Part shown: positions 13,610 through 61,483 of the stretch, piece after piece
How the letters are laid out: each line of letters starts with the position of its first letter
How positions within the stretch are numbered: the first letter of the stretch is position 1
Source: Clostridiales bacterium
GTDB lineage: Bacteria > Bacillota > Clostridia > Christensenellales > Borkfalkiaceae
Direction of reading: 5' to 3'
Length of the DNA: 64,000 bases
NCBI GenBank assembly: GCA_015055965.1
Contig: SVHG01000006.1
Span: 57,234-121,233 of the forward strand
Notes under the pieces: model-generated
Database searches by the model: none
What the model saw: the letters and a program-made list of their open reading frames with translations, nothing else
What the model was told of the DNA's origin: nothing
Program-made: the position numbers and the translations under genes

Positions 13610-13693
13610 TAATTGCGCTATAGCTCGGTTTTTAATAATCTTAATTTTGTTAAGCTTCCCCTAAAAAAATAATAAAAAGCATATAAAACTCAA

Positions 13694-13735
13694 GCGAGCA
13701 ACAGGTATTTTAAATACGCGTTGCTCGCTTTGTTT
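13694..13735 (+). terminator. intrinsic terminator
   Basis: GCGAGCAAC (13694-13702) pairs with GTTGCTCGC (13720-13728), followed by TTTGTTT. The right arm belongs to the duplicated cassette tail (see the repeat features). Confidence 0.6.
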
Positions 13736-14010
13736 CGTTAAATATTAAATGTTTTGTTACGAATTTGGAACGGGATTGCCTGCATCATCATAATGCCATT
13801 CGTTTGCATAATATACTTTTGCATTTTCAACGGCAAAATCATCCGCCCAGCCATCAGGCTTGCTTTCCGCTTCACAATAGACTATCGTATCAGTAAAGGC
13901 CTCTAAACCAATCATCTGCACACTGCTTGGAATTACTATTTGTTTTAAATTTTTACACCCTTGAAATGCTTTAGCTCCTATTTCCTTCAATCCATCATTT
14001 AAAGAAATAT
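13717..14010 (-). repeat. direct repeat copy A (3' end of the LRR gene plus ~40 nt of 3' tail)
   Basis: Aligns with 14878-15171 at a constant offset of 1161 nt. The first ~150 nt are near-identical, including the non-coding GTTGCTCGCTTTGTTTCGTTAAATATTAAATGTTTTGTTAC. Confidence 0.8.
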
Positions 14011-14686
14011 CTTCAAGAGTTTTGTGTTTTGAAAAAGTTAACATTCCAATTCTTTGCAGATCTGAACCACACACTATTTTCTTAATTGCTAAATTAGTAA
14101 ACACACTACCAGTAAGAGCTTTAATCTCATTAGGTAAAGCAAGTTCTCCCTCTCGCGTAATAACCTCTTTAGAAATCCATAACAATACATTACCTTTTTC
14201 TGAAATCGAAAAATAGTCGCTAATACTATTTATCCCAAACAAAAAATACGGCAATCCAATATCGGCACAAACATAATCTTCAAAATGATAATAACTTTTT
14301 AAAAAATCAGCCCCAGCATATTGAATAAAGGCATTTAATTCGCCTTTATAAATAATTATATAATAATTATCTTTCTCTTCTGATACCACTAAAACAATCT
14401 CTTCAAACTCTGGCAGATTTTTATAATATGCCTTACAATCATCATATTCATCTGCTGAAAGAGTGTCCTTGTTTAAAAAAACAAATTTATAACTTTCGCC
14501 AAAACTTACGTTTTTTAACCTATTTAATGAAATCCTATCTCGAAGATAATTTTCTTCCATTTCTGTTCCACTTTTGTTAAACCAACTGCAAGACGGATAA
14601 CTTATTATTAGAACAAATGCCAATATAATTACTGCTATAACAGATACAACTACGAGCAATACCTTTCTTTTCCCTCTTCTCAACAT
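13757..14686 (-). CDS. membrane-anchored leucine-rich-repeat (BspA-type) protein; candidate immunity protein
   Basis: ORF track 13757-14707. The likely start is ATG 14686, after an AAAGGAG RBS. N-terminal TM: KVLLVVVSVIAVIILAFVLIISY. LRR: LEDISLNDGLKEIGAKAFQGCKNLKQIVIPSSVQMIGLEAFTDT. The immunity role is inferred from position only. Confidence 0.75.
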   Translation of the reverse strand: MLRRGKRKVLLVVVSVIAVIILAFVLIISYPSCSWFNKSGTEMEENYLRDRISLNRLKNVSFGESYKFVFLNKDTLSADEYDDCKAYYKNLPEFEEIVLVVSEEKDNYYIIIYKGELNAFIQYAGADFLKSYYHFEDYVCADIGLPYFLFGINSISDYFSISEKGNVLLWISKEVITREGELALPNEIKALTGSVFTNLAIKKIVCGSDLQRIGMLTFSKHKTLEDISLNDGLKEIGAKAFQGCKNLKQIVIPSSVQMIGLEAFTDTIVYCEAESKPDGWADDFAVENAKVYYANEWHYDDAGNPVPNS

Positions 14687-14700
14687 TATATAATCTCCTT

Positions 14701-14880
14701 TTACCATACAGGATCAAATAATAACTTCAACACCCAATCTTCTTGACATGCGCGCGCCAATCCTAAAGATCCACCACCGTGACCTAGCCCATTCATAAGC
14801 CAATGCATATTATTTAAATTTGAAACATATAACGAATCGTTATCAGAACTTAAAATTGCCTCATTTAGATCTTGTTGCGC
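14701..14880 (-). pseudogene. remnant of a polymorphic-toxin C-terminal tail (~60 codons, no start)
   Basis: My translation ends ...NGLGHGGGSLGLARACQEDWVLKLLFDPVW*. This aligns with the end of the 15911-17737 ORF (...CNYGFGGGAFKLAYANKNDWDVQSLLFKPYW*). The same ATGGTAA-type junction joins it to the downstream LRR gene. Confidence 0.6.
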
Positions 14881-15171
14881 GTTGCTCGCTTTGTTTCGTT
14901 AAATATTAAATGTTTTGTTACAAATTTGGAACGGGATTGCCTGCATCATCATAATGCCATTCGTTTGCATAATATACTTTAGCATTTTCAACAGCAAAAT
15001 CATCCTCCCAGCCATCAGGCTTGCTTGCCGCTTCACAAAATACCATTGTATCCGTAAACGCGTACGCACCAATTATTTCCACACTTTTAGGAATCACTAT
15101 TTGTTTTAAATTTTTACACCCTTGAAATGCTTGTGCTGCTATACTAACTAAACCGTCATTTAAAGAAATAT
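14878..15171 (-). repeat. direct repeat copy B
   Basis: See copy A. Copy B lacks the left arm of the terminator hairpin, so the duplication boundary is at ~14877. Confidence 0.8.
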
Positions 15172-15895
15172 TTTCTAAACTCGAATGATAAAATGTTATT
15201 TGCCCTATCCTAATCATATTGGGCGAGCACTTTACATGCTTTATTTTAGATGACTTGTAAAATGGCGCGCTGGATATATGTGTCACCTCTAATGGAATTT
15301 CAAATATACCATTTTGATAACATTCCTCCTTAAAACCTATCAAAACTTTCCCGCCCATAGTTGTTGCGATACCTTCCTCATTATAAGATATATCTCCTAA
15401 TAGGAAATATGCACACTCGTCATCCAACACGCAATAATCTTCATATTTAACATAATGAGATTTATTGCAAAAATCATGCATTTTTAATAAATTTATAACA
15501 TCACCCTTAAAAACAATAAATGTATATTTATGTTTTTGGACTAAGCCTCCATTATTTTTATCAATAACAATAGATTTATCATCAAGCTCAAATATACAAA
15601 CTTCTTCATAATCAGGCAATTGGTAATACTCTTTACTAGCATTATATTGTTTTTTTGAAAGAGATTTTTTACTTAAAAAAATCAATTCGCCCTTATTTTC
15701 TTGGCCAAATAAGGATTCGAATCCTTTATCGAAATATTCTTTATCTGACAAATATTCCTTTTCCATTTGAGTTCCACTTTTACCAAATCGGCTGCAAGAC
15801 TGATAAGTTATTATCCCAACCAAAGTTAATATAATTGTTGCTATAATAGATACAGCTATAAGTAAAATCTTTCTTTTTCTTCTCCACTTAAACAT
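14918..15895 (-). CDS. membrane-anchored LRR (BspA-type) protein, paralogue of 13757-14686; candidate immunity protein
   Basis: 325 aa. N-terminal TM: ILLIAVSIIATIILTLVGIITY. The C-terminal ~90 aa are near-identical to the paralogue (...FQGCKNLKQIVIP.SV..IG..AFTDT.V.CEA.SKPDGW.DDFAVENAKVYYANEWHYDDAGNPVPN). The gene lies 15 nt downstream of the RHS-tip ORF. Confidence 0.8.
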   Translation of the reverse strand: MFKWRRKRKILLIAVSIIATIILTLVGIITYQSCSRFGKSGTQMEKEYLSDKEYFDKGFESLFGQENKGELIFLSKKSLSKKQYNASKEYYQLPDYEEVCIFELDDKSIVIDKNNGGLVQKHKYTFIVFKGDVINLLKMHDFCNKSHYVKYEDYCVLDDECAYFLLGDISYNEEGIATTMGGKVLIGFKEECYQNGIFEIPLEVTHISSAPFYKSSKIKHVKCSPNMIRIGQITFYHSSLENISLNDGLVSIAAQAFQGCKNLKQIVIPKSVEIIGAYAFTDTMVFCEAASKPDGWEDDFAVENAKVYYANEWHYDDAGNPVPNL

Positions 15896-15910: not shown

Positions 15911-17737
15911 TTACCAATATGGTTTAAATAATAACGATTGTACATCCCAATCATTTTTATTAGCATATGCTAATTTAAATGCTCCACCGCCGAAACCATA
16001 ATTACATCCTGATCCAACCACAGCATTAGAAATACTAGTTGCACCCTCCGCCAAACTTTGAATAAACTCCTTTTTTACCTCAATTTGATACGACTCTTCT
16101 GCGTTATTAAGATTTGAGGAATCCGTATTTTCACCGTTTAGAGTAGATTGCTCCTCTTTCACAAAAAACTCAGATACTGAAGTCCACGCATCTACAAAAA
16201 ATCCACTTACTGAATCCCATGCATTTGTAGCATATTCTTTAATCGAGCCCCATGTGTTTACAAAAAAGTTTCGTGTTGAATTGTAACCTCTTTCTAATCC
16301 TGTTGTAATTATATTTTTTAAGGAATTGTAGTCAGATATTAGGGAGTTCTTAATATTCTTAATACCTTTATCGATAGTATGTAATACTTTCTTTGCTGCA
16401 GGAATTATGTCTTCCTCTACATGTTTAACTATTACAATAGCTGCAACGATTGCACACACGGCTATGACTCCAGCAACAATAATTGCCCAGGTTGGGAAAT
16501 TACCATTTTCATCAGCATACATAACAGGGTTGTTATTACAGTAAGAATAAAGGTTAACACCGTTAAAGGAGTTTACATCCATATAAGTGATAGCATCCAT
16601 AGAAATAAATCTACCGATAACAGGTGCATAATATCTACTTTTTAGGTAATAAAAGCCTGTTTCTTCATCATAGAAGTAGCCTTTAAACATAAAGGGGTTA
16701 TGGATAACGTCTAAAGATTCACAGCCTTGAGTGATGGTTTGTGTGGGAACACCCCATGCATCATAATTGTATTTTACCACATAATCACCCTCACTGTCAA
16801 ATATTCCGGTAATATTTCCTAATATATCCCTATGATAGAAATATACCCCATTAGAAGTGTTTACCCCCACTAATTTACCACCAACATCATAAATAACGCC
16901 TTTAAACTTCATAACTCCACGAATTAATGATTTATTTTGAATCCACCCAACTTTATCGGCAAAGTTTTTGCCAAAAATTTTTGATAAAACCCTATGGCTT
17001 TTTAGACCATCGTAATAAGCAGTTCCAGATAATTTTGCAACTTCTTTATAAGTGACTCCCTTCCCTATAGTTAATCCTTTTGAAGCATAATTTGCAACTC
17101 TAATAACTCTAAAAAGAGATTGCCCTAATGCAAAAATTCCTCCTGTTAATGCTCCATTGGCGGCACCTTCTACAAATCCTTCCCAAAAATTTTCACCATT
17201 AATTGTATTAACAACACCTTGCGTTAAACCACCTAAAACTATACTAGAACCCATTTGAATAAACATTGGAGCAAGTGCTCCGCCTGTAAAAGCCGTTAAT
17301 AATAGAGCAGCTGTAAATGCACCCCCACCAATTAACCATTTTGCCCATTCAGGCATATTACCACTTGGGTCGGTGTACATTATTGGGTTGTTTAAGCAGT
17401 AAGCGTATAGGTTTAAGCCACCGATAGTTTCGGGGTCTAGGTATTCATAAGAGTCTGGGCTGATAAAGCGACCAATTGTGGGATCATACCAACGAGTTTG
17501 TAAATGGTACATTTGAAGCGCTTCACACCAGTAATAGCCACGGTATCTAAACGGGTTTAGATTGCCAATTGAGAAATCCTCATCCGTTCCTTCTAACGGG
17601 AAATTTTCTACCTCGCAATTACCCCACGCATCATATTTATAGCTTGCAACGCGGGTGCTACCATAATATATATCTGTAATATCGCCAAATAGGTTTTTAC
17701 TTATTGATATATTAACATAATCAAAACCTTTTGTCAA
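15911..17737 (-). pseudogene. 5'-truncated chimeric RHS/YD-repeat toxin tip: two RHS core ends, each followed by a different C-terminal domain, fused in frame
   Basis: 608 codons. The frame opens immediately after the upstream gene's terminator and has only a TTG start, with no RBS. There are two copies of the RHS core-end signature: NPFRYRGYYW..LQTRWYDPTIGRFISPD...LNLYAYCLNNPIMYTDPSGN (aa 61-127) and NPFMFKGYFYDEETGFYYLKSRYYAPVIGRFISMD...VNLYSYCNNNPVMYADENGN (aa 347-413). Each is followed by a Gly/Ala-rich hydrophobic or TM-containing tail. It could still be expressed, so 'pseudogene/orphan cassette' is an inference. Confidence 0.7.
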
Positions 17738-17748
17738 TATACGGTAAA

Positions 17749-17783
17749 GAAAAAGGCGGTGGCCATATAAAAAGCCCCGCCTG
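17749..17783 (-). terminator. intrinsic terminator 3' of the cytidylate-kinase-like gene
   Basis: Minus-strand RNA: AGGCGGGGC, loop, GCCACCGCCU (one bulge), then UUUUUCUUU. Confidence 0.65.
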
Positions 17784-20343: not shown

Positions 20344-23013
20344 TTAGTCCTCTTTTTCGCCCATAAATTTATCGTAGCTAATAAGCAACGGCTCTACCAT
20401 CCACGAACAGTTTTCGCCCACCGTTTTGTAGTTAGGTAAGCAATAATACTCGTCTACTGCAAGCTTTTTAGAAGAAAGTATGTAGTTAGAGGTTTTGTTC
20501 GCCCTACCCTTGCCCCTAATGATTTCATAGCCTATTACAGTTATGTTATCACGCTTAATCCTGGTTTCCCTAACGGATGCAAGCATGGGGAATATGCAGT
20601 AAGATATATCAACGTTTTCTGCGTTAAAATATTCGTCTACACTTTCGCTTTCCTGCCATTCGTAATTCTTGCCGTACTTTAAGAAGCAGAAGAAGTTCTT
20701 AATTTGTAATCTTACAGGCTCGTTTTGAACAAGCTCGTTGCTTACTGCAAGCTCTCCGCTGGCTTCCTTAAATTCCTTCACGTTGTTTAAAAGATTTTCC
20801 ATAATCTTTTCCTTTTCGTGAATTCTTCTGTACGTTTTAGGCGCTATTATATTGTGATATTTGGTTATTCTTAGCTTTTGTGTTTCGTCGTAAGCAGAAT
20901 CCGTCCACATTTCGTCTACGAAGTCGGCAATATTCTCGTTTTCCAAGTCTACTGCAAGAATAAAGTGGTTTCTTCTGTCTTTATCTTCCTTGCTATCGCC
21001 GGGGAAACGGTTTAACGCTTCCTTATGCGCCGTTAATAGCTCGTATTCCACGCTTTCACGCAGTACGGAGGACTTACTAACGAACATTACTACCATTACG
21101 GTATTCTTATCTGTAATTGCGGAGTGTACCCGTTCCATCCAACCGTCGCTTGAATCAATAGAAGAGGTATCGAAGAATACGTTTATACCGCGCTCTTTAT
21201 AATATTCTGCAAAGCGGGTTATCTTGCAGTCGGGCTCTTTATTATCGTCACGGCAGTAGCTTATGAACATACCCGGCTTATCACCGCTTTCTATGATAGA
21301 ATTGGGGTTAGAAGATCTGTTAAACATCTCTTGATTTTCTTCCCTTAATTCTAATATTTTCTTTTTAAAGCCAGTAAGCTTGGTTAAATCACAAATACAT
21401 TCTCTGCCGATAAGCTTTGCTATAACCTCGTTACCGCTTGATCTTTCTACTATGGAATGAAAGGCGTTAAATAAATATTCTACACCTTTTTCGGGTAAAT
21501 ATTCCTTCTTTAACTGCGCAACGTCCTTATAATACTTTTCTGCGTTAAAATCTACGCGGTTTTTAAGTAACGCGCCGTAGAATGAGCAAAGTAATGATAA
21601 AAGTGAGCTTAAATCCTCTTCCATAGAGGTTGCAGGATTGGTGAACATATCGTAAAAATCGTCTATAGAAAGAATTTCTTCTGCATCTGCAACGATTTTA
21701 TTATTTCTAATACCTGCAGTATAAAGTAAGCAAATGGTTCTTTGCTCTGCCTTTATTTCGTTTGCTCTTAAAATGAACGCCATACTGTTCATTTGAACTA
21801 TCTTTTTAAGCTTTAAAATATGCCCTTCTATCTTTTCCTTGCAAATAGCAAGCCTTTCTTCACAATCCTGTTCGCTTATGATACCGCTCTTAACAAAGCT
21901 CTTCATCATAATTTTGAACATTTTTTCGCTACTTTGCGCGCTATCGCTACCTTCGCCTGCGTGCATTAAGCAGTATACCGTTTTAAAAATACCCTGAGTT
22001 ATAAATAACTCGTAAATAAACATCTTTACCTGTGAAGGATAAAAGGTCTTATTTTCCGGAACTACACCCTCTAGGCTTGTTCCCTTAAACATACCCTTAA
22101 GCTGCTTACTAACGTCTGAAGTGGCGCGTTGGGGGGTATCTAAATCCAGCGCCTTTAACAAGCTGGAATCTGTAATATCCGCAAGCTTTTTAATAAATGC
22201 AAAGTCACACCAATAGGTATCTTCAAGCCATTGAATTTTTATGCCTAAAGAACGGCAAATCATAATTAGATTTTCGTCGTCGTAAATCTTACCCGTTTCC
22301 CTGCTTCTTCTTCCGTTTTTATCCGCGCTGTTTATCTTGGTATAATAAAAGTGTAACTCGCCGTCACGCTCGCCCTTGGTAACGGTGGTTAAAAGGTAAC
22401 AGTTTTCGGTTACCTTGCGTGATAAACAGTCGTCGTCTAGCTCGGGATTAAATTCGTAAAAGGCAAAATACGGAGCGTATTTACATTCCACCCTGTGCTT
22501 GCCGGTATCTATGATTAAATTACCGCTCTTAGCGTCAAATTCCGTTTGACTAAGAAGGGGTAATGCAGCTAATAGCTCTTTAAATTTTGCAAAGCTTACG
22601 GGCGAAGCCTTCATAACCGATCTGGAATTTATCTTAAGATAAGCATCCCTTAAACCGCCGATTATATTTGATATTTCGCCCCTTACAAGCTCTTCGCTAC
22701 CAATAGACGCGCAAAGGGTTATAAAAGAGAATATACGCTCGTCGTCGCCAATGCTCTTTCCTTCCGTCCAAAGCTTAGAAATAGCATCCGCCACCCCGCC
22801 GTATTCCTTTAATTCCTTAACCTCTACTCCCTTTTTTTGCGCCACGCCAATAACGTACGCCTGAACTAAGGCAGAGTAAAATAAACACACCTCGTGCGCG
22901 GTTTTAGGTAACATATCGCTCATAAGAACGATTCTTCTGTTGTAAGCGTTGCCAAATAACCTTTCGCCAACCGATTGAGTTATTAGCTTTTCGTTTATCA
23001 ATTTATTAAACAT
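20344..23013 (-). CDS. 889-aa protein with an internal TIR-like domain (about aa 582-700; nt ~20930-21275); remainder unrecognised
   Basis: The segment PGMFISYCRDDNKEPDCKITRFAEYYKERGINVFFDTSSIDSSDGWMERVHSAITDKNTVMVVMFVSKSSVLRESVEYELLTAHKE follows the bacterial TIR pattern. That pattern is hFISYxxxD at the start, then G-h-x-VFxD, then I-x-x-G/W, then hhVhhS..S..S, and finally a conserved Glu-containing helix. No P-loop or other known motif is seen in the ~580-aa N-terminal or ~190-aa C-terminal regions. Confidence 0.6.
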   Translation of the reverse strand: MFNKLINEKLITQSVGERLFGNAYNRRIVLMSDMLPKTAHEVCLFYSALVQAYVIGVAQKKGVEVKELKEYGGVADAISKLWTEGKSIGDDERIFSFITLCASIGSEELVRGEISNIIGGLRDAYLKINSRSVMKASPVSFAKFKELLAALPLLSQTEFDAKSGNLIIDTGKHRVECKYAPYFAFYEFNPELDDDCLSRKVTENCYLLTTVTKGERDGELHFYYTKINSADKNGRRSRETGKIYDDENLIMICRSLGIKIQWLEDTYWCDFAFIKKLADITDSSLLKALDLDTPQRATSDVSKQLKGMFKGTSLEGVVPENKTFYPSQVKMFIYELFITQGIFKTVYCLMHAGEGSDSAQSSEKMFKIMMKSFVKSGIISEQDCEERLAICKEKIEGHILKLKKIVQMNSMAFILRANEIKAEQRTICLLYTAGIRNNKIVADAEEILSIDDFYDMFTNPATSMEEDLSSLLSLLCSFYGALLKNRVDFNAEKYYKDVAQLKKEYLPEKGVEYLFNAFHSIVERSSGNEVIAKLIGRECICDLTKLTGFKKKILELREENQEMFNRSSNPNSIIESGDKPGMFISYCRDDNKEPDCKITRFAEYYKERGINVFFDTSSIDSSDGWMERVHSAITDKNTVMVVMFVSKSSVLRESVEYELLTAHKEALNRFPGDSKEDKDRRNHFILAVDLENENIADFVDEMWTDSAYDETQKLRITKYHNIIAPKTYRRIHEKEKIMENLLNNVKEFKEASGELAVSNELVQNEPVRLQIKNFFCFLKYGKNYEWQESESVDEYFNAENVDISYCIFPMLASVRETRIKRDNITVIGYEIIRGKGRANKTSNYILSSKKLAVDEYYCLPNYKTVGENCSWMVEPLLISYDKFMGEKED

Positions 23014-23074
23014 AATACTTCCCGTTTTAGTCTTTGGTATTTACTCAAAAACCTGCTTTTAAATCTCTTTGTTA

Positions 23075-23210
23075 ATGAATTGAATTACCTTATTCTTTTT
23101 ATGCTCCACGGAGCAATTCATGACGGAACGTCAATTCACGCGCGTTAGCGCAATTCATGCCATCGGCAATTCATTGTTGAAAAATCGTGTAATTTACACG
23201 CGTTTTCAAC
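23075..23210 (-). repeat. array of four abutting 'GC-rich mini-hairpin + AATTCA[T/C]' units, plus a flanking long hairpin and an inverted copy of the 7-mer
   Basis: Plus-strand units: GCTCCACGGAGC-AATTCAT (23103-23121), GACGGAACGTC-AATTCAC (23122-23139), GCGCGTTAGCGC-AATTCAT (23140-23158), GCCATCGGC-AATTCAT (23159-23174). The four stems differ in sequence but each is self-complementary. A long hairpin pairs GTTGAAAA (23176-23183) with TTTTCAAC (23203-23210), with an inner stem CGTGT/ACACG. The inverted ATGAATTGAATT lies at 23075-23086. Confidence 0.75.
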
Positions 23211-23215
23211 TTATA

Positions 23216-24481
23216 TTAAGTATTTTCTATAAGTCTTTTTGCAAGCTCTAAGTAAATTCCGTATGCCTTAGAAGCGTCTTCGGGCATAGTTTTTACGTCT
23301 GCGTATAGGTCGGATATCCTTCTTACCTCATCTGAAAGCTCGTGCGCATCCTTAACCCCTAATATTTGTTCACGCCATTTGAATAAGCCAACCTCGTGAA
23401 CGCTCTTTTCTACCTTACAGAAATATCCATCCGTAACGTGAGCGAAGTCCTTTGCAATTTTAGAAATTTCTGCAAAGCTTGCCTTTTGAAGCTCTTTGGT
23501 TTGTTCGCTTTCTTCAGGAACTGCGGTGGGAAGAATAATAACCATTTTCTTATTATCGTCACTCTTATATTCCTTCTTTTCTGCAAGCTGAGCTTCGTAG
23601 GTTACAAGCTGTAATCTAGTGCCGTTAATAAACTGTTGAGAAGGTCTCATACAGCAAACGATAACGTCTGACGTTTTATGTAATGCGTTTGCAGAGCTTT
23701 GCACGCCCGCACCGCTATCAAATAATATTGCGCCGTATTCCCTTTTTTCACATTCGCCAACAAGCTGCATAATTGCAAAAACGGAAGTGTTTGCAACCAA
23801 CTGCTCTCCACTATAAGAAACGTCTACCCCTAAGAACTTAACCGTTCCTTCTTCTTTTCCGAAGAAGCGTGAAACGTCCATAAAGCTATAGGCGGGTAAA
23901 AAGTCGGTAATAGCCTTGCGCTTTGAAGAAAGCTTTTCTTCTAAAGAAAGCTCGCTTTTTTCTATTTTATCAAGCGCGGTTAAAAGTCTGCCTAACGCGC
24001 TTATATACTTTTCTACGATTTCAAGATCTTGACCTTCAACGCAGGCGGTGTTTTCCATATAACGGCTACACTCATCCGCTATTTTTTGCAATATCTTTTG
24101 TTCCGTTAAGGGAAGCTCTAAATCGCCGAAAATCGCTTGAATATCTACCTGCTTAAAATGGGGAGATAAAGCCTTAATTACCGCGTTTAGATTTCTTTCA
24201 TCCCCGTAAGTTGCGCCGAAAACGCTTTCGTTTCTGCTTAAATATTCACCGCTGTTTATAATTTTGCAGGTGTGAATGCTCTTGGGGAATAAATCGGTAA
24301 ACTTATCTTGCGCGTTAAAAAAGTAGGTAAGACCGGCGCTTTCTAAGTCCGCATCAACAAGCAATAACGGCTTTTGGGGATTAGAGCCCAATTCATCTAT
24401 AAGATGCTTTGCCGTGTTTAGTAAGGTGGTCGTTCTACCTGAACCGCCCTTATATGAATAAAAAGTATAACATGCAGTCAT
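23216..24481 (-). CDS. ParA/MinD-like (SIMIBI-class) P-loop ATPase with a variant Walker A (KGGSGRTT) and a large insertion
   Basis: 421 aa. The N-terminus FYSYKGGSGRTTTLLNTAKHL...LLVDADLESAG resembles the deviant Walker A KGGxGK[ST], but Arg replaces the second Lys (nt 24428-24451). A Walker-B-like AILFDSGAG follows ~240 aa later, after a helical insertion. Confidence 0.7.
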   Translation of the reverse strand: MTACYTFYSYKGGSGRTTTLLNTAKHLIDELGSNPQKPLLLVDADLESAGLTYFFNAQDKFTDLFPKSIHTCKIINSGEYLSRNESVFGATYGDERNLNAVIKALSPHFKQVDIQAIFGDLELPLTEQKILQKIADECSRYMENTACVEGQDLEIVEKYISALGRLLTALDKIEKSELSLEEKLSSKRKAITDFLPAYSFMDVSRFFGKEEGTVKFLGVDVSYSGEQLVANTSVFAIMQLVGECEKREYGAILFDSGAGVQSSANALHKTSDVIVCCMRPSQQFINGTRLQLVTYEAQLAEKKEYKSDDNKKMVIILPTAVPEESEQTKELQKASFAEISKIAKDFAHVTDGYFCKVEKSVHEVGLFKWREQILGVKDAHELSDEVRRISDLYADVKTMPEDASKAYGIYLELAKRLIENT

Positions 24482-24503
24482 TTTTCTTCTTCCGCCTTAG
24501 TTA

Positions 24504-26654
24504 TTATTTCTGTTGGTTAAGTAATTCCTTAAGTACGCTGTATAAATTGATTAAGTAGTTAGAATCGTTTCTGGAAATATCGGTTACGAACGCGTTGAAT
24601 AGGTTGGGGAATCTTGCTTCAAAGCTTTCCATCTTTTCAATAGCGCCTTCGGTATATCTGCGGAAGGTTCTATCGTCTTCAACGGTAAATAATTCGTTGC
24701 CGTCCTTCGCCTTTTCGCCAGCCAAGAAGCCCTGCTTTGCAATAGTTGCGCGGTTTGCGCAGTTTTGCATAGCCATAAAGAATCTAAGCAATTCGTAAGC
24801 AAGCTTTTCCTTTTCGCTTTCCCCGTTTGCGCTGGGAATATCAGTTTTAACGAATGCTGCAACCTCGCCAAGCTTTGCGCAAATAGTTCCCATATCGCAA
24901 GATGCGCTTGAACCGCTTACTCCTTCTAAACGCTTTTCTACCGCGCTGTTAATAAGCGCTTCTATATCGTTATTTTTCTTACCGCCAAGCTCTTTTTCTA
25001 CGCAAGCCTGAACGGTTTTTCCCATGCTTTCTGCGGTTAAAACCTTCTTTAACGCGCTTTCTATACGCTTATCAACTAGGTTTGCGATATATTCTTCTAT
25101 CATTCCGCCACCCGCTTGAGTGGTTGCGCCCTCTGCTTCCTCTTGCTTTTCGTACTTACAAACGTAATCGTAAGAGTCGATTATAGCTTCTATAGCGCGC
25201 TCTGTGATAAGTAGGTTGTAGTTTTCGGTATCCCATAGGTTGGTTACGCAAGCGGGGTTTCCGCTATCAACGTATCTATCCCCCATAATCTTATCAAACA
25301 TATCGTCTACAACCTTATCGGGCTGACCGGATACGTAATAGCAATACTGAACGTTTACGCGAAGCGCCATGGGTACTAACGCAGGCTCTTTAATATCCAC
25401 CTTAGCGCCTGCAACCTGTTGCATAATTTCGTGATCGTCGCCGTATTCCCATTCAATTTCAAATTCAGAGTTGCCAATCCAGAATGCGTAACGCGTTCTT
25501 GATGCGTTCATGTAGCTGGTTCTTGCAGAGTGAATTGCCTGAGCAACGTATTCACGGCAGAAGTTAACTGCGTTTTTACCGTTTTCATCTATGAAATAGT
25601 AATACAAGTCGTCTACGGGAAGCTTCATATCGCTCTTTGCACCGCCAACGCCGTAATGCTTTTTAAGCGCCTCAAATTCCTCTTCGTTGTTAACGATACT
25701 TTCGTAACGTAAGTCCGCAGCGCCGTCAATTAGCATATCTATCAAATAGTAGGTATGGTATAGGTTGAAGTAGTTGTATTCTTGCTCTGAATTGTTTTTC
25801 TTCTTTCCAATGTATAAAATTTCCTTTTCTGCATCAGTAAGGCTTTGGCAGGTTGCTAGCTTGGGAAGAAGGGGTAAACAGTTTTTAATAAGCCAATCTT
25901 GAACCTTTGCTCTTGCTTGGTTAACGGCTTCAACAACGTCTTCAAATCCACCCTTATCGTTAAGGTAATCAATAAACTTATCGTCACGGCCACCGCCTAA
26001 AAGTTCAGCGTCGTTATTCTTTTCTACCTCGTCTATTTCGCCTAACGCATAGTTAAAGAAATCCGCAAGAGCGGCGTTAACTGCGTAAGTGAAGTATAAA
26101 GACCCGCGTGAAGGATTGCCGGCGTCTGCTCTAAAGCCCCAAGTGCCGTCCTCTCTTTGCCCCTTTAGTAATTTTAGAAGGGTATCTGCGCCGATATGTA
26201 ATAATCTATCCCTAACCTCTTCCGTTAAAGAAAGCACACCCTTTCTTTGAGCGTAACGGGCTAATATACATGAAGAAGAAACCCACGTCATAACGTCGGT
26301 ATAGCCGTATTCGCCAAAAAGACCTTTGGTTACCTCCGCTCTCTTATAAGGGGTAATAGAATAGCCTTCTTTTTCTACCATGTTTAGCATGGTGGTAATC
26401 ATTTTGTTTACCTTTTGGTTGATATCTGCCTTTTCGCTATCTGGGAAAATGCTCTTGTTATCGCCAAAAACAACCAATAACAGTAATGCGGAAGCAACCC
26501 CGATAGACTGGGGAATTAAGCCTTCGCTCATCATGTGGTTTTTATCAACGAATTTTTCGCCGCACTTAGACCATTCTTCAAATAGCGCCGTTTTCGTTGA
26601 TGACGCTGCTTCTAATACGGTTGATAGGTTAAGAATGTGTGAACGCATATCCAT
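24504..26654 (-). CDS. 716-aa hypothetical protein; possible alpha/alpha-toroid (prenyltransferase / terpene-cyclase-like) repeat
   Basis: First gene of the cluster, with RBS CAGGAG. The only motif I recognise is KGQREDGTWGFRAD (nt ~26110-26175), which resembles the QxxDGGWG repeat of squalene-cyclase/prenyltransferase folds. The fold assignment is weak. Confidence 0.75.
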   Translation of the reverse strand: MDMRSHILNLSTVLEAASSTKTALFEEWSKCGEKFVDKNHMMSEGLIPQSIGVASALLLLVVFGDNKSIFPDSEKADINQKVNKMITTMLNMVEKEGYSITPYKRAEVTKGLFGEYGYTDVMTWVSSSCILARYAQRKGVLSLTEEVRDRLLHIGADTLLKLLKGQREDGTWGFRADAGNPSRGSLYFTYAVNAALADFFNYALGEIDEVEKNNDAELLGGGRDDKFIDYLNDKGGFEDVVEAVNQARAKVQDWLIKNCLPLLPKLATCQSLTDAEKEILYIGKKKNNSEQEYNYFNLYHTYYLIDMLIDGAADLRYESIVNNEEEFEALKKHYGVGGAKSDMKLPVDDLYYYFIDENGKNAVNFCREYVAQAIHSARTSYMNASRTRYAFWIGNSEFEIEWEYGDDHEIMQQVAGAKVDIKEPALVPMALRVNVQYCYYVSGQPDKVVDDMFDKIMGDRYVDSGNPACVTNLWDTENYNLLITERAIEAIIDSYDYVCKYEKQEEAEGATTQAGGGMIEEYIANLVDKRIESALKKVLTAESMGKTVQACVEKELGGKKNNDIEALINSAVEKRLEGVSGSSASCDMGTICAKLGEVAAFVKTDIPSANGESEKEKLAYELLRFFMAMQNCANRATIAKQGFLAGEKAKDGNELFTVEDDRTFRRYTEGAIEKMESFEARFPNLFNAFVTDISRNDSNYLINLYSVLKELLNQQK

Positions 26655-61454: not shown

Positions 61455-61483
61455 ATTATAACATCACTAAGGGAAAGTGTCAA
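61455..61483 (-). promoter_or_regulatory. perfect consensus sigma-A promoter upstream of the giant ORF
   Basis: Minus strand: TTGACA (61483-61478), exactly 17 nt, TATAAT (61460-61455). It lies ~90 nt upstream of ATG 61367. Confidence 0.75.

Follow-up and report, generated by a model that had tools for sequence, protein, structure and literature searches.

The 64,000-nucleotide (nt) stretch of Clostridiales bacterium contig SVHG01000006.1 analysed here, hereafter the window, carries on its minus strand an open reading frame (ORF) of 608 codons (15911-17737) in which two RHS core ends, each followed by its own C-terminal tip (CT1 and CT2), succeed one another in a single frame. What can such a frame be for, and why would it persist, with neither an RHS shell nor an evident start of translation? 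The island in which it lies, in a gut Christensenellaceae bacterium, is a shell-less orphan RHS cassette array, a kind of locus already well known. Within that class, we consider it probable that the island combines a conserved promoter, a silent toxin frame and expressed immunity genes of the leucine-rich repeat (LRR) type.

The 5′ end of the frame provides the first part of the answer. Its TTG (17737) lacks a Shine-Dalgarno sequence, and the same frame is open for only 17 codons further 5′, all of them made up of a GC hairpin and a U-run. These form an intrinsic terminator on the minus strand (17745-17782; hairpin 17754-17782, U-run 17745-17753; RNA folding energy −18.5 kcal/mol, z −3.4), which lies directly 3′ of the preceding cytidylate-kinase-like gene, closes the upstream TIR/decarboxylase/cytidylate-kinase-like operon and is at the same time the first part of a cassette boundary element. 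A first-pass annotation, made from the letters of the window alone, had described a frame with only a TTG start and no ribosome binding site that opens right after a terminator, and both the ORF coordinates and the hairpin with its U-run, 8 nt from the TTG, agree with this. The same annotation had called the frame promoter-less, which is not supported: the supposed TTG start is the first three bases of the −35 hexamer of a predicted sigma-A promoter, P1 (minus strand, 17709-17737), composed of TTGACA at 17732-17737, a 17-nt spacer, a TG dinucleotide and the −10 hexamer TAATAT at 17709-17714. P1 scores 10/12 plus TG, and sites of at least 10/12 with TG number eight on both strands of the window, compared with 1.9 ± 1.4 in shuffled sequences; two of the eight fall inside the 608-codon frame and several others are intergenic, ahead of genes. 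Because the TTG lies within the −35 box, a transcript from P1 would start inside the frame, about 35 nt into the annotated ORF, and would lack a usable start codon. What had passed for a gene start is thus a predicted −35 box, and an annotation trap is corrected.

P1 belongs to a boundary block that is found in six copies in three genomes of the genus and reads, in order, GC hairpin and U-run, TATTGACAAA, a 17-nt spacer, TGnTAAWAT and AAAAAC-CTATTTGG (KNLFGD). All six copies have the hexamers, the TG and the 17-nt spacing in common and differ in the sequences of spacer and hairpin; in three, the RHS sequence is reduced to the KNLFGD stub and an immunity-like lipoprotein gene or LRR gene comes directly afterwards. 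P1 accordingly displays the hexamers, the spacing of 16-18 nt and the conservation among copies by which a sigma-A promoter is recognised, its transcript start being a predicted one. Three further orphan edges, cut at other places, carry 12/12 promoters (L017:5796, L044 at ~2735 and, on the minus strand, L015 at 3120); a terminator hairpin lies directly upstream of the first two, and the third has its promoter 54 codons into the orphan frame and its terminator ~130 nt upstream of that. Sites scoring 12/12 occur once per 52 kb of strand in the genome. A metagenome scan with the boundary pattern returned 50 matches, all of them ordinary promoters of unrelated genes located 20-60 nt before a ribosome binding site and ATG, and no further RHS cassettes; it serves as a control and not as a census. 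At one locus of a related genome (L146; G012:C118:32900-36400), three consecutive terminator-promoter-KNLFGD elements lie upstream of feoB, two of them with the stub only before a lipoprotein gene, in what amounts to an immunity-only array; feoB also follows the main RHS locus in the genome studied here (G000). The only 12/12 promoter of the window, at 61483, is found elsewhere, 116 nt upstream of a single minus-strand ORF of 10,220 codons (30705-61367).

Promoter-like sequences also occur deeper within RHS coding DNA. A second site inside the frame, P2 (minus strand, 16771-16800; TTGACA-18-TAAAAT with TG, 11/12), overlaps the codons FDS...VVKY just before YDAWG and recurs in L016 and in two RHS units of L046. 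Furthermore, all six full-length RHS genes of the genus (C12:20295-25037 of the present genome, equivalent to L198:12296-17038, and its relatives in L017, L018, L015, L022 and L023), as well as one long orphan, contain an in-frame TTGACA-17-TATAAT site scoring 11-12/12. These embedded sites are homologous, being placed in KLR..[VL]D[KM]..YN at 644-685 codons before the stop, and their spacers vary. The Asp codon at the site is GAC in 7/7 cases, a codon that makes up 26% of Asp codons in these genes, and this bias, together with the rarity of 12/12 sites, supports selection on the DNA motif itself. We found no convincing candidate for translation from in-frame internal starts: downstream of P1 and of P2, no in-frame ATG, GTG or TTG outside the last 50 codons has a good ribosome site, and in four orphans no in-frame start with a ribosome site is present for more than 800 nt downstream of the predicted transcript start.

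That the frame derives from RHS genes is evident from the NCBIfam profile TIGR03696 (Rhs_assc_core), which matches it twice (whole-protein E 2.9e-41, 139.8 bits compared with a cut-off of 32.5; 79 and 76.4 bits for the two copies in a six-frame search of the genome). The two core-end signatures proposed at residues 127 and 413 correspond to NNPIMYTDPSGN (residues 116-127) and NNPVMYADENGN (residues 402-413), and the frame exceeds the TIGR03696 cut-off in both places; the Pfam RHS repeats are marginal (PF05593, E 1.4e-4). NNPIMYTDPSGN fits the core-end cleavage motif type PxxxxDPxG, at which cleavage is predicted, and NNPVMYADENGN has DExG instead, as do the homologues P0004 and P0005, cleavage there being likewise a prediction. 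Each core end is preceded by only ~25-40 repeat residues in place of the shell of ~1000 residues or more and the plug or trafficking N terminus of full-length RHS proteins, and Pfam and NCBIfam scans of the 608-residue frame detect no N-terminal, shell, plug or export domain.

The parent of such fragments has to be sought beyond the window, which, as the first-pass annotation had stated, holds no full-length RHS gene. In the genome assembly (2.06 Mb, 21 contigs, 96% complete) a six-frame search finds exactly three core ends, namely the two in the frame and one in a 1580-residue RHS gene on another contig (C12:20295-25037), the sole full-length RHS gene of the genome. The island itself maps to C21:73-75 kb, and by the contig coordinates at least ~80 kb separates the two even with the contigs end to end, which supports the view of an orphan array detached from its main gene. 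A search of the rest of the genome for a full-length gene sharing the conserved core-end DNA had been proposed; the gene is there, and where its DNA resembles that of the frame (176 nt) identity is 72%, the longest exact match being the 21 nt at YDAWGNC. At the protein level, module 1 of the frame is 50% identical to the end of this main RHS gene. Directly before the latter lie phage-like structural genes (C12:14764-20168; L198:6765-12169), among them a major head protein (phrog_14242, E 6e-67) and a virion structural protein, and the 333-residue neighbour upstream of the main gene also sits beside the orthologous RHS gene of G007. No signal peptide is seen by eye in the main RHS protein, and a comparison of its N terminus with viral contigs found no relative.

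Module 1 (minus strand, 17357-17698; residues 14-127, KNLFGD...NNPIMYTDPSGN) is a 5′-truncated RHS core end and the first TIGR03696 copy. It is followed by CT1 (16877-17356; residues 128-287), which consists of a Gly-rich membrane module and a cut alpha/beta domain. The former (residues ~128-205) is the hydrophobic Gly-rich stretch that had been noted after the first core end, and an AlphaFold2 (AF2) model of an intact homologue, with a predicted local distance difference test score (pLDDT) of 70.7, contains three helices in it; the latter (residues ~206-287) is a small domain that measures ~110 residues in intact homologues and is incomplete here. RHS proteins of the same genus match the frame only up to residue ~190-218 and differ in their end domains. 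Since the Gly-rich module precedes differing end domains, it appears to be shared between toxins rather than to be the toxin itself, and looks from these alignments like a pre-toxin or membrane-entry module; we therefore rejected the Gly-zipper as toxin proper, and the proposal that CT1 is a membrane-active toxin is not supported, as a separate ~110-residue alpha/beta domain follows in intact homologues. The pre-toxin TG profile PT-TG (PF14449) was not reported for CT1 in a Pfam scan listed to E 5, and the region cannot be filed there.

The end of CT1 records how the two modules came to share a frame. In five homologues (P0002-P0006) the native end reads ...KGVIYDCGGELTGAYAKEIALTKGYQYFVNIWLL, and CT1 in the window lacks the last ~21 residues: it tracks the homologues up to KGVIYDVGGKLVG and then turns into the RHS sequence VNTSNGVYFYHRDILGNITG.... 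The junction falls at 16862-16880 on the minus strand, within GGKLVGV (residues ~287-290), where CT1 homology stops; RHS-derived sequence resumes at ~K288, and homology to an orphan of a sister species (G012:C108) sets in at ~16860-16843. YDVGGKLVGV had been read as the start of new YD repeats, but KGVIYD.GG is conserved in CT1 homologues, so that IYDVGG belongs to CT1 and not to a YD repeat. In two loci with CT1 homologues (L044 and L046) the tip is followed by a small gene of 103 or 135 residues, a candidate CT1 immunity gene, of which we found no relative in the 96%-complete genome; no gene lies between CT1 and module 2, and CT1 is accordingly left with no cognate immunity gene. The cut end of CT1, the missing immunity gene and the second RHS stub together indicate a deletion that took with it the end of CT1, the immunity gene that followed and the next cassette's 5′ edge. 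On this comparison with its homologues, the in-frame fusion, suspected from the outset, is a real deletion scar.

Module 2 (minus strand, 16499-16876; residues 288-413, ending ...NNPVMYADENGN) is a second 5′-truncated RHS core end and the second TIGR03696 copy, with 82% DNA identity to the G012:C108 orphan and 95.6% identity to a metagenome contig, L197. CT2 (15914-16498; residues 414-608; stop codon 15911-15913) begins, as the first-pass annotation had it, with a strong transmembrane helix (residues ~412-445) right after the core end, and continues with a long helix bearing three 11-residue Trp-periodic repeats, a variable end of ~80 residues and an FGGG...W tail. The repeats (FFVNTWGSIKE/YATNAWDSVSG/FFVDAWTSVSE) occupy window positions 16160-16290, or CT2 residues ~78-112. 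In comparisons of CT2 with 1.84 billion representative proteins and with 400 genomes of the order, just P0007 (67%) and the 69-residue P0008 matched beyond the repeats; all remaining matches were tape-measure-like, confined to residues ~45-115 and located in long proteins, of which P0010 (922 residues) looks like a phage tape-measure protein, on our own reading of its 11-residue W repeats, no family match being found. P0007 is 95% identical to CT2 over the first 113 residues and diverged in the last ~80, and P0008 has the same 5′ edge joined directly to the CT2 tail. The transmembrane helix, the Trp-repeat helix and the extracytoplasmic LRR partners described below suggest that CT2 could be membrane-active.

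Both tips are of unrecognised type, as had been surmised. Pfam and NCBIfam scans of CT1, CT2 and the tips of seven relatives gave nothing significant; Pfam lists no family for CT1 or for the tips of six relatives even at a threshold of E 5, a setting at which HMMER filters drop most matches above ~0.1. A profile of the CT1 end domain reached E 0.4 at best against PDB sequences, and a Foldseek search of the PDB with the model of the CT1 homologue returned nothing below E 1; the AF2 model of CT2 (pLDDT 56) was too poor for a structure search, and the Foldseek result covers CT1 only.

What follows the frame is better equipped for expression. LRR1 (minus strand, 14918-15895; 325 residues) is a membrane-anchored BspA-type LRR protein (PF13306, E 1.8e-18) whose ATG lies 15 nt after the CT2 stop and 8 nt after AAAGGAG. 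Its paralogue LRR2 (13757-14686; 309 residues; PF13306, E 9.2e-16) has its real start at 14686, again after AAAGGAG, and is preceded by a remnant of a variant tip, CT2′ (14701-14779), consisting of the last ~26 codons and stop in the frame ...GGGSLGLARACQEDWVLKLLFDPVW* and 96% identical to the end of an intact CT2′ gene in L197. There, the intact CT2′ (= P0007) is directly followed by LRR2, and G003:C51 has a gene for a homologous LRR lipoprotein after a distant CT2-like tip, so that the same stop-ribosome site-ATG layout is observed in the window (CT2-LRR1 and CT2′ remnant-LRR2), in G003:C51 and in L197. LRR1 and LRR2 share 47% identity, being diverged in the middle and nearly the same in the C terminus (~85 residues) and 3′ tail, and the variable CT ends co-vary with the variable LRR middles, as would be expected of toxin/immunity pairs. 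LRR immunity proteins (Imm-LRR) are a recognised class (PMC3482391), and its hallmark, an LRR gene that directly follows a tip and co-varies with it, is found for CT2-LRR1, CT2′-LRR2 and the G003 pair, protection being a prediction in each. Gene context thus makes both LRR genes probable immunity genes, LRR1 being the probable immunity protein for CT2 and LRR2, from its place in L197, the putative cognate partner of CT2′. Both proteins are predicted to have an N-terminal membrane anchor with their bulk outside the cell, and a CT2 toxin would for this reason probably act at the outer face of the envelope.

The island as a whole spans 13.65-17.79 kb of the window, inserted between the cytidylate-kinase-like gene and conserved neighbours, and is ordered as terminator, sigma-A promoter, core end 1, CT1, core end 2, CT2, LRR1, CT2′ tail and LRR2. 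At its right edge, between LRR2 and a convergent conserved neighbour gene, a self-comparison detects an inverted repeat (13692-13730) that is probably a bidirectional terminator; on the left, the upstream operon (20344-26654, encoding a TIR protein, a ParA-like ATPase, a decarboxylase and others) ends at the island's terminator. In a related species (L049; cytidylate-kinase-like protein 84% identical) RHS and LRR genes are absent from the syntenic site, which is occupied by an unrelated membrane-protein gene. G007:C44 has conserved flanks, 94% identical up to codon 68 of the frame and once more starting at the LRR 3′ end, where synteny resumes at window positions 13650-14003; the cassette content in between differs: a broken core end, a 130-residue gene, a second stub and one LRR gene. 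In L197, module 1 is joined to module 2 by a crossover that falls exactly in the YDAWG codons. No recombinase gene is found nearby. Judged from these alleles, the island is a reshuffled and partly decayed cassette store. In the sister species, the module-2-type orphan lies directly downstream of tRNA-Ser(CGA) (L016:1132-1222; G012:C108), a position that points to a different insertion site for this type of cassette.

We propose that a deletion running from inside CT1 into the RHS stub of the next cassette happened to leave the two modules in frame, and that the 608-codon frame is not a TTG-started gene. The RHS part would most likely form a transcribed leader that is translated barely or not at all and persists as a silent store and recombination arm, and P1 would serve the two LRR_5 membrane-protein genes with their strong ribosome sites. 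Their products would shield the cell, at the outer surface of its membrane, from CT2-type toxins that neighbours deliver. Recombination would reshuffle the cassettes, with crossovers in conserved RHS motifs (YDAWG above all) and in the LRR 3′ ends, which are likewise conserved. Taken together, we judge this account fairly likely, and several points weigh against it. The promoter and the “immunity-only” output are predictions from sequence, and the roles of CT2 and the LRR proteins as toxin and immunity are predicted from gene context. An untranslated leader of 1.8 kb is unusual and might suffer premature termination, and the toxin frame has stayed open. The ratio of nonsynonymous to synonymous substitution rates (dN/dS) is ~0.3 for module 2 and the N-terminal part of CT2 compared with L197 (27 differences), which points to recent selection on the coding sequence at the protein level, makes translation from a non-canonical start possible and may leave room for low-level translation as in Salmonella. 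Finally, the region is 100% identical at the DNA level in seven independent metagenome assemblies, the exact window allele being one clonal sequence.

Some of these points would suit a working intracellular unit of toxin-antitoxin type, in which P2 (16800), or P1, together with a weak non-canonical start yields low amounts of a core-end-plus-CT2 protein that is held in check by LRR1. Strong promoter-like sites do lie inside the frame, P2 recurs in related RHS units, module 2 and CT2 show the low dN/dS, and, in Salmonella, internal promoters and a CTG start give rise to rhs tips (PMC7043789). We nevertheless find such a unit unlikely, as neither promoter is followed by a serviceable in-frame start and the predicted exposure of the LRR partners outside the cell is a misfit with the neutralisation of a cytoplasmic toxin. 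Alternatively, the RHS part could be a decaying pseudogene, the promoter-like sites relics or chance occurrences in AT-rich DNA and the LRR proteins ordinary surface proteins. The cut CT1 and the loss of its immunity gene, the other deletion alleles (P0008 and the remnant at 14701-14779) and the commonness of BspA-type LRRs among surface proteins are all in keeping with decay, which however leaves unexplained why hexamers and spacing are kept in six copies around a varying spacer, why 12/12 promoters mark independent orphan edges, why the rare GAC codon is used in 7/7 embedded sites, and why LRR genes follow CT2-type tips in the window, G003:C51 and L197 with the same layout and co-varying variable regions; we hold pure decay to be improbable.

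Translation of the whole frame from the TTG at 17737 into a small two-tip RHS protein of 608 residues, as the gene calls of the JGI assemblies annotate it and as 608 open codons permit, is in our view very unlikely, given a TTG with no ribosome site that belongs to the −35 box of the only nearby promoter, 8 nt past a U-run, and a product with no shell, plug or export domain and a cut CT1. An assembly chimera produced from repeated RHS core sequence, conceivable in a metagenome-type assembly of 21 contigs, was rejected as next to impossible, since the seven assemblies are identical across the region and modules 1 and 2 have no blastn match and no exact match of 12 nt or more between them.

Set beside known systems, the island resembles the orphan rhs-CT/rhsI and cdiA-CT/cdiI modules of enterobacteria (Poole et al. 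2011, PMC3150448; Koskiniemi et al. 2014, PMC3967940), which are likewise 5′-truncated, combine a core end, a variable tip and an immunity gene without shell or start codon, and form arrays with remnants that are reshuffled by recombination in the conserved core. It shares with them the retained core end and the absence of shell and translation start, but not the position directly downstream of a main rhs gene: the island is on a different contig from the main gene and between housekeeping-type genes, a deletion has joined two of its modules in frame, its host belongs to the Clostridia and is of Gram-positive type, the tip and immunity families are others, and an identical stretch of only 21 nt is available for recombination with the main gene. 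In Salmonella Typhimurium, internal promoters of main and orphan rhs genes have mapped starts 89 nt before PxxxxDPxGL, and a CTG start gives toxin (PMC7043789). The promoters described here also lie within or at the edge of RHS coding sequence, in the conserved region upstream of the tip, and are predicted to feed tip-plus-immunity transcripts independently of the full-length gene. In contrast to those of Salmonella, they are predicted, no start codon is evident, and they occupy other positions, namely the cassette edge before KNLFGD, ~230 nt before the core-end motif in the case of P2, and 644-685 codons before the stop in full-length genes. The third comparison is with Imm-LRR and polyimmunity loci (Zhang et al. 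2012, PMC3482391) and the acquired interbacterial defence arrays of gut Bacteroidales (bioRxiv 10.1101/471110), with which the island has in common LRR genes right after tips, immunity arrays without a working toxin and repetitive intergenic elements. It differs from them in its LRR proteins, which are of the BspA type (PF13306), carry a membrane or lipid anchor and pair with a tip family that Pfam does not model, and in that the repeated element is a terminator with a consensus promoter rather than an integron-like site, with no recombinase gene in the vicinity.

Orphan tips are a standard feature of RHS and CDI (contact-dependent inhibition) loci, and in that sense the locus itself is ordinary. 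What it offers is a testable answer to why silent fragments persist in gut Clostridia: each would have a strong promoter of its own and no start codon, so that antidote genes could be kept on and the weapon part, though silent, would still be at hand for recombination. The locus also draws attention to families missed by current domain libraries, two of toxin tips and one of LRR-type antidotes. A wider proposal, which we advance tentatively and as somewhat short of probable, is that every RHS unit of the genus is wired with its own consensus promoter, that the orphans are autonomous immunity-expression units whose silent toxin fragment acts as leader and recombination arm, and that CT2 and the LRR lipoprotein form a new outer-face pair. 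If this is true, each orphan would consist of a terminator, a strong promoter and an untranslated toxin stub, the promoters of the full-length genes would be kept by biased codon choice, and the orphan cassettes would be a Gram-positive counterpart of the acquired interbacterial defence arrays.

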